From Candidatus Thorarchaeota archaeon (GTDB lineage Archaea > Asgardarchaeota > Thorarchaeia > Thorarchaeales > Thorarchaeaceae), in assembly GCA_046758445.1 (NCBI GenBank), contig JBHIAE010000003.1, forward strand, positions 55,379 to 119,378: a stretch of DNA of 64,000 bases. The letters are read 5' to 3'. This document shows positions 28,465 to 46,729 of this stretch, in pieces (the first letter of the stretch is position 1; every line of letters begins with the position of its first letter). The notes below the pieces were generated by a model that made no database searches, had not been told where the DNA came from, and was given only the letters and a program-made list of their open reading frames with translations. Both the position numbers and the translations under genes were made by a program.

Positions 28465-28746
28465 GTGCGCGTGAGTCTCAAGTCCTTCGGCCCCATCCGC
28501 CGGGCTCTCAATAGTCAGGTAGTCGACATAGACGTTCCTGACAACTCCACTGTCAGGCAGGTCATCGATAGGATTGTCGAGATCGGAGGAGATGAAGTCA
28601 GGCGTCTGGTATTGGACGGCAATCGCATAAGCGGCAATCTGATAGTGATGTTGAACAAGAGGGATGTGGCGACACTCGAAGGAGAAGACACACCAGTGCG
28701 TGAGAATGACGAGGTAGTTGTTCTACCACATGTCCAAGGGGGATAG
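28465..28746 (+). CDS. MoaD/ThiS/SAMP ubiquitin-like protein
   Basis: Beta-grasp pattern, IVMLN.RD, C-terminal LPHVQGG di-glycine. Confidence 0.92.
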   Translation: MRVSLKSFGPIRRALNSQVVDIDVPDNSTVRQVIDRIVEIGGDEVRRLVLDGNRISGNLIVMLNKRDVATLEGEDTPVRENDEVVVLPHVQGG

Positions 28747-42370: not shown

Positions 42371-42877
42371 CTAGGCCTCCCTGAGCGGTTCATCCAGTTG
42401 AGTGTCCCAGACGCCTTCCCGGACATCGTTCTGAAACTCCTTTGCCGACTTCTCCTCGATTGTCACTCCCATCGAAACACAGGTTCCTGATACAATTAGT
42501 ACCGCACCCTTCAGGGTAAGTGCCGAGAGATCGGCCGATTTTCCCTTGGCGATGGTCTTCAACTGGTCAATGGTGAGGTTGCCTATGATCTCTGTTTTTG
42601 GCTCCCCCGAACCCTTCGGCTGACCTATCTCCTTGAGGATCAGGGCACTTGTCGGTGGAGTCCCAACTTCAACTTCGAAGGTCTTGTCTAAAGGATTCAC
42701 AGTGATCTTGACTGGAACCTTCAGTCCCACGAATGGCTGGGTCACCTCATTGATCTTTGTGACTACCTGAAAGATGTTGACACCAGTTGGACCAAGAGCT
42801 GGTCCTATCGGTGGTCCTCCTGACGCTTTGCCGCCCTCTACCATTGCGTCAACTACTATGGGTTTTGTTTCACTCAA
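42371..42877 (-). CDS. rpl11: 50S ribosomal protein uL11 (TTG start inferred)
   Basis: VEGGKASGGPPIGPALGP, VGTPPTSAL, GTCVSMGV. Confidence 0.96.
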   Translation of the reverse strand: MSETKPIVVDAMVEGGKASGGPPIGPALGPTGVNIFQVVTKINEVTQPFVGLKVPVKITVNPLDKTFEVEVGTPPTSALILKEIGQPKGSGEPKTEIIGNLTIDQLKTIAKGKSADLSALTLKGAVLIVSGTCVSMGVTIEEKSAKEFQNDVREGVWDTQLDEPLREA

Positions 42878-42882
42878 ACTTG

Positions 42883-43050
42883 CTTCAACTCCTGATGCAG
42901 TGCTCTCGGCATATCTGCGGACACGCCTACTAGTGACGACCTGCTGGCACAATCAGCACTCTGTCCAGCAAGGTCTACTGCATTCATAGTCACTTCTTTC
43001 ACCCCTGACACGACGTCTCGCGTCCATGTCTGATTAAGGAGTTGGAAGTC
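42883..43050 (-). promoter_or_regulatory. Candidate structured 5' leader RNA of the L11-L1-L10-L12 operon
   Basis: Six helices of 6-11 bp, G-U pairs favour the minus strand; TATA-like CCTTAAAA about 20-25 nt upstream; closing helix includes the AGGAG SD. Confidence 0.6.
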
Positions 43051-43076: not shown

Positions 43077-43343
43077 TTGGAGTGTGAGGAGTCTAGGACT
43101 CGACCAGAGATGAATCAATCTGAGGATGACCATACAGAGGCCTCGGAACTCGATGAGGAAGATGAAGAGCGGCAGCAGGAGTTCGCAATTAGAGCTGTCG
43201 AGATAATCCAGACTGTTGTTGAGGACTTGGATGAGAGAGGAAAGAGAATTTGGCGCAAGATGCTGGGGATTGATCCAGGGCCTCAGTCGTGCGCCCAGAA
43301 AGAGTCGTCGTCCAACTCATCATCATCAAACTCCTCATCCTGA
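43077..43343 (+). CDS. Possible small acidic hypothetical protein, antisense between spt5 and rpl11
   Basis: Helical-looking EFAIRAVEIIQTVVEDLDERGKRIWRKMLG; 3' end overlaps spt5 on the opposite strand. Confidence 0.3.
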   Translation: MECEESRTRPEMNQSEDDHTEASELDEEDEERQQEFAIRAVEIIQTVVEDLDERGKRIWRKMLGIDPGPQSCAQKESSSNSSSSNSSS

Positions 43344-43957
43344 GGAGTCTCTTCAGCCTCGGCCTCTTCTCTATGAGCCTTCTCAACAATCTTGGCAAAG
43401 TCTGCATGCACTCTGATTGGGATTGTGTGAGGACTATCGAGCAATTCGAGGATGAGTTCTTCCTTAGCTGCGTCTACCCTGGCTACCTTAGCACGCTCGC
43501 CCTTGAAAGGACCCGAGATGATCTCCACGACATCTCCCATGGATATGCCTTCTGCCGCGGGCTTGGGAACCAAGAACTTGTCTATCTCCTCAAAGCTCAC
43601 CTTTCCGCCCACGCGCCCTCGCACATGAGGGACGCCGGAGATGGCGATTTCTACATCTCTGAACTCCAGAGTTTCCAAGAATACATAGCCACGAAGGGTC
43701 TCAGGGACAAGGATTGCCTTGACGCGTCCAAGCAGCTGATTCTGAGAAACAAGCTTGGGTTCTCCTGTCTTCTTTCGTTTCTTCTTACAATTATCCATGT
43801 GCTCTTCTGTAGCCTCTCTTGAGGAGAATTGTTCCGAGCAGAATGGACACTCCCAGACATCTGTTTCACCAATTACGGCGGTTGTGATCAAATCGGTTAC
43901 ACCGCGTTCTTGGCCTATTGTGGTCCTGACTGCATAGATGCTGCTTCTTTGTTCCAA
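43283..43957 (-). CDS. spt5: Transcription elongation factor Spt5 (NusG) with inserted CCHC zinc finger and acidic tail
   Basis: IYAVRTTIGQE, LRGYVFLE, KOW GDVVEIISGPFKGERAKV. Confidence 0.95.
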   Translation of the reverse strand: MEQRSSIYAVRTTIGQERGVTDLITTAVIGETDVWECPFCSEQFSSREATEEHMDNCKKKRKKTGEPKLVSQNQLLGRVKAILVPETLRGYVFLETLEFRDVEIAISGVPHVRGRVGGKVSFEEIDKFLVPKPAAEGISMGDVVEIISGPFKGERAKVARVDAAKEELILELLDSPHTIPIRVHADFAKIVEKAHREEAEAEETPQDEEFDDDELDDDSFWAHD

Positions 43958-44506: not shown

Positions 44507-45160
44507 TTGAGAATATTGAGGCCAATGCAAAGTAAGGTGTATATCGGTTTAGTGATTTCCATACTGGTTCTTTTTGCAGTGCCGCAGTTCGCTGTGGCGA
44601 CTACCTACTACGGTGCTGTCAACAATCCCCACCCATGGGCATACACAACGCTTACAGCATCAGGGGGCTCCTACGGGGGACTCATTTATTGTGAGGGCTA
44701 TAAGCTTGATCCATCCCATTGCCACGCTTATGCTACAATCTACATCAGAGTCACCCCTTCTCAAAGTGGGAAGATAGAGATTGGGGTCGATTGGCATCTT
44801 CGAGGCCACATCAGCGCTCTACACATGCTAAGCAAGGCAGAATGGATAGCTTGGTACTACTGGTGTGAACCAGGACACGAACTGTACCCATGGAACCACG
44901 GCGGAGTGAAAAGCGGACCGTTTCGACGAACAGACTGCCACTATGGTGGTTGGTGGACGTGGGAAGGACATATCACTGATGTTTCCCACACGACAAGCGA
45001 GAAGAGGACTCCCAATGAGGCTGTGACTCAAGGAGAAACCATCTCCATTGGAATCTTGATAAAGTTCAGTCTCTTTGGAAGTTCACACATTCAGGATGCG
45101 TACCAGACCAGTGGTTCACTATACGTGGATGTAAACTCGATAGCATACCAATATGCGTAG
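44507..45160 (+). CDS. Secreted hypothetical beta-rich protein
   Basis: Signal peptide-like N-terminus; Trp/Tyr/His/Cys-rich; own terminator. Confidence 0.65.
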   Translation: MRILRPMQSKVYIGLVISILVLFAVPQFAVATTYYGAVNNPHPWAYTTLTASGGSYGGLIYCEGYKLDPSHCHAYATIYIRVTPSQSGKIEIGVDWHLRGHISALHMLSKAEWIAWYYWCEPGHELYPWNHGGVKSGPFRRTDCHYGGWWTWEGHITDVSHTTSEKRTPNEAVTQGETISIGILIKFSLFGSSHIQDAYQTSGSLYVDVNSIAYQYA

Positions 45161-45303: not shown

Positions 45304-45495
45304 CTAGCTTGTTGGCTGCGTGCCCCAGTCGGCTGTGATTAGGGACATGACTATTTGGATTATGTAGCTGAGCATTCCAACAAGGATCATTCCTAGAATG
45401 GTGATTCTCAAGCTAAGCCAGAGTTCTTTTCTGGCGGGTTTTGTGGCAAGCTTCAGTATCCGTCTGCTCTCTCTGATGAAGTCACCAATACCCAA
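45304..45495 (-). CDS. secE: Protein translocase subunit SecE/Sec61 gamma
   Basis: RILKLATKP..KE, one TM; position between ftsZ and spt5. Confidence 0.93.
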   Translation of the reverse strand: MGIGDFIRESRRILKLATKPARKELWLSLRITILGMILVGMLSYIIQIVMSLITADWGTQPTS

Positions 45496-45556: not shown

Positions 45557-46729
45557 TCAGTGTTCCTTTAAACTTTCCTGAAGGCCCAAGGATGCACTCT
45601 CTAGCCGCGGTAGACCTAGGTCAGTCTTTAGGTCATCTGCTAGCGGTGTGACACGGTCTGTTTTGTCGAATATGTACGGTGAGTTGACCCCAGATGCTAT
45701 GATTGTAACGCGAAGTCGGTCTTCCAGTTCCTGTGATATCAATGCACCATAGATTATCTCAGCACCTGGATTGACCTGCTCAGTAACAAGTTCGACAACG
45801 TGTTTGGCCTCAGCTAGCTGGAGGTCCGTACTACCACTGACGTTCACCAGAATATTCCTAGCGTTCTCAATTGATACGTCAATCAGAGGGTTCCTTAGCG
45901 CGTTTATGACTGCCTCTTCTGCCCGGTTCTCTCCCTGAGCTTCTCCTAGTGCGATTATCGAAACACCGCCGTTTTTCATAGTGGTACGCACGTCTGCGAA
46001 GTCTAGGTTCACAAGACCAGGCTTCGATATCAGTTCAGCAATCCCCTTTACAGCCCTCACGAGGACTTCGTCCGCCACCATAAATGCCTCAGGCATTGAA
46101 AGATCAGGAGCAATCTCCAGAAGCTTCTCATTCGGAATAGCTATCAAAGTGTCTACGTGTTCCATCAGAGCGGTAAGGCCGCGAGTCGCATTTCTTCTAC
46201 GAGTTTCTCCCTCAACCTCAAACGGCAAGCACACAATTGCAACGGTAAGTGAACCATTCTCTTTCGCGGCTTTTGCAATCAATGGTGCTGCACCAGTGCC
46301 CGTGCCGCCTCCCATTCCGGCAGTTATGAAGACCAAGTCCCCCCGAATTACATCTTTTATCACATCATAGGTTTCTAGCGCGGCCGCCTCTCCAACATCA
46401 GGGTCGTTACCTGCTCCCAGACCACCACAGGTTTCCTTTCCTAAGAGCAACTTGTGAATTGAGTTGCAGAAGTATAGGTCCTGCGCATCTGTATTGGCTG
46501 CGAGGGTTTCTGCGCCCTCTACTCCAACCTCCATTATGCGTGTCACTGCATTATTACCTGCACCACCAACGCCTACGACCAGAATCCTGGCTGTGACGGA
46601 CTCGAGCAGGTCCGCTAGTTCATCATCTGTTGTTGCTGCAATTCGACGTTTCTTTGACTGTCTGGCACTACCAGGGTCACGTTTGGTGTCCGATTGTTTG
46701 CGGAGGACCTCTTCAAGCAAAGGATGCAT
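45557..46729 (-). CDS. ftsZ: Cell division protein FtsZ
   Basis: GVGGAGNN, GMGGGTGTG, NLDFADV. Confidence 0.97.
   Translation of the reverse strand: MHPLLEEVLRKQSDTKRDPGSARQSKKRRIAATTDDELADLLESVTARILVVGVGGAGNNAVTRIMEVGVEGAETLAANTDAQDLYFCNSIHKLLLGKETCGGLGAGNDPDVGEAAALETYDVIKDVIRGDLVFITAGMGGGTGTGAAPLIAKAAKENGSLTVAIVCLPFEVEGETRRRNATRGLTALMEHVDTLIAIPNEKLLEIAPDLSMPEAFMVADEVLVRAVKGIAELISKPGLVNLDFADVRTTMKNGGVSIIALGEAQGENRAEEAVINALRNPLIDVSIENARNILVNVSGSTDLQLAEAKHVVELVTEQVNPGAEIIYGALISQELEDRLRVTIIASGVNSPYIFDKTDRVTPLADDLKTDLGLPRLESASLGLQESLKEH

Follow-up and report, generated by a model that had tools for sequence, protein, structure and literature searches.

A conserved, predicted C2HC zinc finger inserted in the NGN domain of the elongation factor Spt5 of Thorarchaeota

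Spt5/NusG is the one transcription factor that is conserved throughout life, and its archaeal form is usually treated as a minimal protein consisting of an NGN and a KOW domain. In bacterial NusG, insertions within NGN are located in the hairpin between strands 2 and 3 and not in the loop between helix 1 and strand 2. Domain DII of Thermotoga maritima NusG, an insert within NGN, binds double-stranded DNA, its preferred ligand, at 0.04 μM, binds RNA polymerase (RNAP) as well and has been modelled on the upstream DNA (PMC5224480). In Pyrococcus furiosus Spt5, non-conserved, lineage-specific basic residues of NGN contact the upstream duplex and influence run-off transcription (PMC11162788), and in complexes of RNA polymerase II the upstream duplex is encircled by NGN, Spt4 and KOW1 (PMC6150629). 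Here, we describe a 44-residue insert in the NGN domain of an archaeal Spt5, encoded in a 64,000-nucleotide stretch (the window) of contig JBHIAE010000003.1 from a Candidatus Thorarchaeota archaeon (GenBank assembly GCA_046758445.1). The insert carries a Cys/His motif with the spacing of a zinc finger, followed by a run of lysine and arginine residues, and was first noticed in a model-made reading of the sequence (the original prediction), which took it for a lineage-specific elaboration that may bind nucleic acid, a ubiquitin-like modifier or the surface near Spt4.

The gene is a minus-strand open reading frame (ORF) of 224 codons plus stop (positions 43283-43957, TTG start, 224 aa), and its product is the Spt5 of the host genome. 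It scores 147.8 bits against TIGR00405 (KOW_elon_Spt5; cut-off 69.95), and the Pfam families Spt5-NGN (58.2 bits versus 22.4), split into two stretches, and KOW (31.3 versus 22.3) both match above their cut-offs. In a structure superposition, the NGN core follows that of Methanocaldococcus jannaschii Spt5 (3lpe_A) with Z 15.7 and a root-mean-square deviation (rmsd) of 1.3 Å over 84 residues, the 44 insert residues being skipped. No other Spt5 was detected in the genome, and a profile search of the genome with the insert returned this copy alone, with no second copy of the finger and a next best match at E 0.26.

What splits the NGN match is an insert of exactly 44 residues (amino acids 32-75), about 45 having been predicted, which aligns between helix 1 and strand 2, after position 30 of a profile built from 35 compact archaeal Spt5 proteins (145-165 aa). 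It reads TDVWE-CPFC-SEQFSSREATEE-HMDNC-KKKRKK-TGEPKLVSQNQL, in the ORF context ...GETDVWECPFCSEQFSSREATEEHMDNCKKKRKKTGEPKLVSQNQL..., and holds the motif C37-x2-C40-x12-H53-x3-C57 directly before KKKRKK. C37 is encoded at 43847-43849 and C57 at 43787-43789, in agreement with the coordinates first given for the motif (43787-43849). The protein has no cysteines other than the three of the motif and, judged from the sequence, the Cys/His pattern is well beyond chance.

The motif C-x2-C-x12-H-x3-C is found in all 121 of the closest homologues (73-100% identity; NCBI name mostly Candidatus Thorarchaeota) and is also kept in the most divergent genus, in which the insert is 39-45% identical. Over 30 diverse inserts, the divergent genus included, the invariant positions are W35, C37, P38, C40, F44, H53, C57, S71, N73, L75 and G77. 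To map the distribution, as the original prediction had proposed for Asgard Spt5 proteins, 400 genomes of the phylum were searched with residues 28-80 of the protein, and the insert was found in 83 of the 85 genomes, and all 16 genera, of the window's own family (NCBI: Thorarchaeota). Both misses are assembly gaps, one gene being cut by contig ends exactly across the insert and the other genome yielding no Spt5 of any kind. The single genome of the sister family in the same order (96% complete) encodes a plain 158-aa Spt5 with neither the insert nor the acidic FW tail described below, and the same search gave no real matches in about 314 other Asgard genomes. In this sample the insert is thus restricted to the window's own family, and an exhaustive search of 1.84 billion representatives likewise confined the finger to the query's own clusters. 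These counts bear out the proposed lineage-specific elaboration: at the level of sequence, the insert is a conserved, lineage-specific add-on to Spt5.

Only one other weakly similar finger was seen in the family. Weak matches (E about 0.006-0.009) in related genomes lead to a protein of about 170 aa in which an N-terminal C2HC finger (CPYC-x11-H-x3-C, hence C-x2-C-x11-H-x3-C) and a basic run are fused to a Zc3h12a-like NYN RNase domain (L019:628-1140 (+), L020 and L021, in genomes G366, G384 and G316 of the own family). Its finger matches zf-C2HC_2 with 25.2 bits, just below the cut-off, and its NYN domain scores 61.7 bits. Given the difference in spacing and the low similarity, we do not claim this protein as the donor of the Spt5 finger.

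A full-length AlphaFold2 model, built from a 72-sequence alignment by a method that does not model zinc, has a mean predicted local distance difference test score (pLDDT) of 88.4, with values of 90-96 in the insert. It places a hairpin at residues 34-36/43-44, a helix at 47-56 and a further strand at 68-71. The same elements return when the insert is modelled alone as a 51-residue peptide (mean pLDDT 80), and the strand at 68-71 is therefore part of the module and not of the NGN sheet. Since orthologues keep the ligands and the model predicts order for the insert, neither of the outcomes named at the outset as speaking against the finger, loss of the Cys/His residues in orthologues or a disordered insert, was found. 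We consider it very probable that the module is a real, conserved and folded zinc finger.

The type of finger was assessed by pattern, fold and profile. The pattern C-x2-4-C-x12-H-x3-5-[H/C] with a core aromatic residue is present, C37, C40, F44, H53 and C57 being identical in 30/30 inserts, whereas the second core position is Thr in place of Leu; the hairpin and helix of a beta-beta-alpha fold are present in the AlphaFold2 models. Against PDB sequences, the insert profile matches first INSM1 (7.5e-6, two fingers summed), then the archaeal-virus protein B-129, ZBTB17, ZBTB20 and Zif268-type fingers. The chains of FAAP20 and SLX4, which carry ubiquitin-binding zinc fingers (UBZ) of type UBZ4, follow at E 0.06-0.1 only, behind many generic C2H2 fingers, and NEMO is not among the best 60 matches listed. 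Foldseek places the fingers of BCL11A, Tramtrack, ZNF295 and CTCF on top, with rmsd 0.4-2 Å over 25-30 residues at E >= 0.5. The 51-residue model gave no match at E 0.001 or better, but weak Foldseek E values are expected of so small a domain and are not a sign of a new fold. In a Pfam scan of the 30 inserts (E up to 1), zf-C2H2_4 matched 30, zf-C2H2_2 28, zf-C2H2 21, zf-C2HC_2 17 and Zn-C2H2_12 3, all below threshold; none of the 30 reached the gathering cut-off of a C2H2 family, and the isolated insert of this Spt5 scores 20.0 bits for zf-C2H2_2 (cut-off 26.9) and 17.8 for zf-C2H2_4 (cut-off 27). Taken on the models and profiles, the finger is predicted to be a generic classical C2H2-type beta-beta-alpha finger with Cys as its last ligand.

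The partner of Spt5, for which a check had been proposed, is encoded in the genome outside the window: Spt4 (PF06093, 40.2 bits) matches at G000:C2:9473-9673 within the ORF G000:C2:9473-9682 (L001:1501-1710 (-)), next to an S1-domain ORF that we read by eye as the RNAP stalk subunit Rpo7. Spt4 was found in 39 of the 40 own-family genomes searched. The family protein has 70 aa and an 8-residue loop insertion with the consensus LPGRDPHEDPRK-S, in which D46-P47-R48 are invariant in all 25 members; neither the sister-family Spt4 nor four other Asgard Spt4 proteins have the loop, and DPEGS or DPENS stands there instead. The finger and the Spt4 loop thus co-occur, but as a single phylogenetic event, so that their co-occurrence is suggestive of cooperation and is not statistical evidence for it.

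We predicted the complex of Spt5(1-135) with Spt4 by a procedure in which 58 of 80 solved complexes reach the mark, as do 2 of 110 mismatched pairs. The pair scored 0.66 versus 0.00 for the best control, with at least 88% of contacts agreeing between runs and a partner pLDDT of at least 81, a pass that may stem from likeness to solved complexes such as 3LPE and 3P8B. The predicted interface is canonical, with Spt5 79-86 antiparallel to Spt4 32-41, and the residues named in it include L76 and G77 of Spt5, at the exit of the insert, and residues 39-41, 47 and 50 of Spt4, of which the 47/50 region is the new loop. Because the strands run antiparallel, the end of the Spt4 strand and the start of its new loop adjoin the start of Spt5 strand 2, where the chain re-enters from the finger. 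The placement near Spt4 is therefore upheld in the predicted complex, in which the insert emerges beside the Spt4-binding strand.

By analogy with the systems described above, we tentatively favour, at somewhat less than an even chance, the reading that the insert, stabilised by zinc, serves as an accessory module next to Spt4 and contacts the exiting nucleic acid with its Lys run. Through the finger, the elongation factor would gain a larger Spt4/NGN face. The Lys run of most members would make non-specific electrostatic contacts with nucleic acid on its way out of the polymerase, the upstream DNA duplex being the most likely target, and these contacts would stabilise Spt4/5 on the elongation complex and also the upstream edge of the bubble. 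The linker after C57 has 7-11 residues, 3-8 of them Lys or Arg, in 119 close homologues.

Several observations weigh against this reading. The basic patch is not universal, as the linker is acidic in genus g15 (CQMAEGEDSPERV) and weakly basic in genus g8, with the finger kept in both; since the finger survives without the Lys run, the basic patch cannot be what its selected function rests on. Taken alone, the 21-residue finger is in most cases neutral to acidic (net charge -4 to +4, mode -2), and its exposed helix positions are variable, unlike those of DNA-reading fingers. In the complex model, no residue of amino acids 32-75 is named as a confident contact, an unnamed residue being uncertain and counting neither for nor against contact. 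The geometry of the module relative to DNA, finally, is inferred from the structures of other organisms.

Retention of the finger where the Lys run is lost keeps two other explanations in serious contention. In the first, the finger and the Spt4 loop would form a new composite surface by which a lineage-specific partner is brought to the elongating polymerase; candidates would be chromatin proteins, factors for termination or RNA processing, and RNAP subunits, and the Lys run would play a secondary part. Protein contacts are a frequent role of single C2HC and C2H2 fingers, and here the invariant exposed positions W35, P38, S71 and N73 cluster outside the helix. The finger and the Spt4 loop occur together in the own family, and neither is present in the sister family or in the four other Asgard genomes examined for Spt4, which fits a joint surface; that pattern, however, goes back to one event without independent replication, and the finger residues are not confidently placed on Spt4 in the complex model. 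We regard such protein docking as possible, if on balance unlikely. A wider version, in which the finger and the co-evolved Spt4 loop would be a new recruitment surface for a lineage-specific partner, from the chromatin, RNA-processing or termination machinery or tagged with SAMP/Urm1, seems doubtful to us. If true, an Asgard lineage would independently have made Spt4/5 a modular platform, as eukaryotes did with extra KOWs, an acidic N-terminus and the C-terminal repeat region (CTR).

The loop that holds the finger is also used by other archaea. When the 150 best representatives were re-inspected, at least 11 other clusters had unrelated inserts of 21-153 aa between helix 1 and strand 2 (representatives P0126, P0138, P0141, P0162, P0190, P0196, P0198, P0231, P0244, P0173 and P0268). 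They include a 77-aa helical insert (Heimdallarchaeota-labelled), a 46-aa insert (Thermoproteota-labelled), an extra KOW motif nested in the loop of P0138 and, in P0198 (a cluster of 193 members), an 80-aa insert with CGEC...H-x4-H. The zinc finger described here occurs, among the loop inserts inspected, in Thorarchaeal Spt5 alone. With so many unrelated inserts in the same loop, the Thorarchaeal finger is one solution among several at a permissive site, and the statement in the original prediction that typical archaeal Spt5 is only NGN and KOW holds for the solved proteins but not for these clusters. A loop that hosts unrelated inserts in other lineages, an extra KOW among them, agrees with protein docking.

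The tolerance of the loop agrees equally with a purely structural explanation, in which the finger would be a zinc-stabilised brace of the NGN/Spt4 heterodimer without a ligand of its own, kept because its surroundings in the fold and the loop of Spt4 are by now adjusted to its presence. The high pLDDT of the insert in the context of the whole protein and the co-insertion in Spt4 would both fit. A passive spacer would, however, not call for surface residues other than the ligands, and the Lys run, to be as strongly conserved as they are over at least 14 genera, and we consider the brace clearly unlikely.

The original prediction had likened the finger to the ubiquitin-binding fingers of NEMO and optineurin, and a UBZ-like finger would bind ubiquitin or a ubiquitin-like modifier. 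The insert does have C2HC ligands with the UBZ spacing, as described for NEMO-type fingers. Because C-x2-C-x12-H-x3-[H/C] is also the spacing of classical C2H2 fingers, it does not single out NEMO. The weak, sub-threshold matches to the autophagy-receptor UBZ family Zn-C2H2_12 (3/30 inserts, E 0.002 or weaker) and to the UBZ4 fingers of FAAP20 and SLX4 also lean towards ubiquitin binding, but classical C2H2 fingers head both the sequence and the fold searches, and the helix face used by UBZ fingers varies in the Spt5 insert. The host, moreover, appears to have no ubiquitin to bind: PF00240 was found in 0 of the 85 own-family genomes and in 0 of 1 sister-family genomes, as against 289 hits among the about 314 Asgard genomes outside the order, and a UQ_con E2 was not found in the own genome (92.7% complete). 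Thorarchaeota have likewise been reported to 'seemingly lack true ubiquitin homologues' (bioRxiv 10.1101/2021.08.17.456605). With nothing clearly specific to UBZ fingers in the PDB profile search, the Foldseek search or the Pfam scan of 30 inserts, and with a ubiquitin-free host family in the census of 400 Asgard genomes, we reject NEMO/UBZ as the leading identity of the finger and rate ubiquitin binding as very improbable. The nine ThiS/MoaD-type and one Urm1-type beta-grasp ORFs of the own genome would be possible SAMP or Urm1 targets, though nothing points there. One of the nine is a SAMP-like ORF of the ThiS/MoaD family in the window, at about 28486-28743 (+) (G000:C3:83864-84121; PF02597, 41.2 bits).

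That the finger reads DNA sequence and targets Spt5 to particular genes, as RfaH is targeted to ops sites, is hardly credible: the predicted fold is of the class found in DNA-reading C2H2 fingers, but there is a single finger only, its canonical helix positions -1, 2, 3 and 6 are Ser followed by variable, often acidic residues, and the protein is the only Spt5 detected in the genome and not a specialised paralogue.

The protein ends, as first described, in an acidic tail with FW (27 residues, ...DDDSFWAHD). In the 59 of 121 homologues with a delimitable tail, its median length is 32 aa with 47% Asp or Glu, and [FY]W is present in 59/59. Acidic tails with an aromatic end are common among Asgard Spt5 proteins; tails with W/F-motif ends (for example DDDEWAKFDGF) are also found in finger-less Spt5 proteins labelled Loki-, Heimdall- and Sigynarchaeota, and the tail is therefore a wider feature, separate from the finger. 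Going by sequence, the aromatic end looks like a short linear motif common to the FW tail here and to the Spt5 of those lineages. Runs of Asp and Glu followed by W-[AS]-K-F or F-S-E-F-F were seen in P0223, P0124, P0126, P0144, P0180, P0242 and P0251. Some archaeal Spt5 proteins have long N-terminal extensions with putative starts (190-210 aa in P0168 and P0165; 140-270 aa in P0190, P0221, P0174, P0170, P0152 and P0140). One type of extension is 36-38% Asp/Glu and recalls the acidic N-terminus of eukaryotic Spt5; another is globular, with recurring GTEDDTV...EW...RYGD motifs and no Pfam match.

The features of the gene and its neighbours are collected in Table 1. The window has the order secE-spt5-L11-L1, the neighbours being named from their translations, and two gene segments reported from Asgard genomes, ftsZ-secE-spt5 and L11-L1-L10-L12, have a matching order (PMC10833476), so the locus fits the conserved Asgard spt5 neighbourhood. 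In the 1.35-kb gap between the secE and spt5 ORFs, a putative gene lies on the opposite strand (44507-45160 (+), 217 aa); its product has a hydrophobic N-terminus and no Pfam match.

Table 1 Coordinates of the spt5 gene, the parts of its product and the neighbouring ORFs in the window
Feature	Position	Strand	Basis
spt5 gene	43283..43957	-	TIGR00405; Pfam Spt5-NGN in two stretches and KOW; 3lpe_A superposition
NGN part 1, strand 1 and helix 1 (aa 5-31)	43865..43945	-	Match states 1-30 of the compact-Spt5 profile; AlphaFold2 strand 6-12, helix 17-30
44-residue insert (aa 32-75)	43733..43864	-	After profile position 30; pLDDT 90-96; own family alone in the phylum sample
C2HC beta-beta-alpha finger core, W35...C57 (predicted ligands C37, C40, H53, C57; core F44)	43787..43855	-	Invariant W, C, P, C, F, H, C; AlphaFold2 strand 34-36, bridge 43-44, helix 47-56
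Lys/Arg run KKKRKK (aa 58-63)	43769..43786	-	Lys/Arg-rich linker in close homologues
Return segment EPKLVSQNQL (aa 66-75), third strand of the module	43733..43762	-	S71, N73, L75 invariant; strand 68-71 in both AlphaFold2 models
NGN part 2 (aa 76-131), starting with strand 2, the Spt4-docking edge	43565..43732	-	Pfam Spt5-NGN stretch 71-129; predicted pairing of Spt5 79-86 with Spt4 32-41
KOW domain (aa 138-194)	43376..43546	-	Pfam KOW 141-167; AlphaFold2 strands within 143-192
Acidic C-terminal tail, ending SFWAHD (aa 198-224)	43286..43366	-	pLDDT 53-60
ORF read as ribosomal protein L11, downstream of spt5	42371..42952	-	Translation read by eye, without family search
ORF read as L1, after the L11 ORF	41702-42367	-	Translation read by eye, without family search
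ORF read as secE, 63 aa, upstream of spt5	45304..45495	-	Translation and gene order, without family search
ORF read as ftsZ, 390 aa, further upstream	45557-46729	-	Translation and gene order, without family search

The finger insert in Thorarchaeal Spt5 is unreported in the literature we searched: full-text searches returned no description of it, and in a 2026 survey of elongation factors in 218 Asgard proteomes, Spt4, Elf1 and Spt6 are the only proteins for which zinc fingers are mentioned (PMC13289920). Here, we show that a whole Asgard family has a finger module, predicted to be folded, at the Spt4 edge of Spt5, together with a matching change in Spt4, and that this loop of Spt5 has repeatedly taken up unrelated inserts in other archaea. 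Our analysis adds the ubiquitin census, the co-insertion in Spt4, the loss of the Lys run in one genus and the loop as a general insertion hot spot. The module offers a testable example of accessory surfaces gained by an elongation factor before the eukaryotic elaborations, and it is small enough to be grafted into Thermococcus or Pyrococcus, which would probe its effect on elongation, pausing and termination.

Compared with known systems, the module shares the C2HC ligand set and a similar spacing with the NEMO/optineurin UBZ fingers and the UBZ4 fingers of FAAP20, SLX4 and Rad18, but has no clearly specific signal over generic C2H2 fingers and belongs to a lineage without ubiquitin. Classical C2H2 and C2HC fingers (zf-C2H2_4, zf-C2H2_2, zf-C2H2 and zf-C2HC_2; INSM1 2LV2, B-129 2WBT, MOZ CCHC 1M36) are closer, with the common pattern aromatic-x-C-x2-C-x3-F-x8-H-x3-C, the core Phe and the predicted hairpin and helix; the Spt5 module differs from them in being single and embedded in a loop of another domain, in its Cys as fourth ligand, in the Thr for the second core Leu and in its added third strand. 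With T. maritima NusG DII and the smaller insert of Aquifex aeolicus NusG it has in common that an extra domain lies within the NGN of a NusG/Spt5 protein, although there is no relation in sequence or fold to DII, which is much larger (about 190 aa), and structural alignment to 1M1G/1NPP and 2XHC matched the NGN and KOW cores alone. The solved archaeal Spt5 proteins (M. jannaschii 3LPE/4ZN1, P. furiosus 3P8B/3QQC/8OKI and Thermococcus kodakarensis 9BCT) have the same NGN and single KOW, secE/L11-type neighbours, the Spt4 partner and the canonical interface predicted here; to these the Thorarchaeal protein adds a 44-residue module, a 27-residue acidic FW tail and an 8-residue loop in Spt4, none of which is present in the solved ones. 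By function, the proposed accessory role beside Spt4 would be likened to that of T. maritima NusG DII, of the basic NGN residues of Pyrococcus Spt5 and of the eukaryotic KOW1 region that closes the DNA-exit tunnel.

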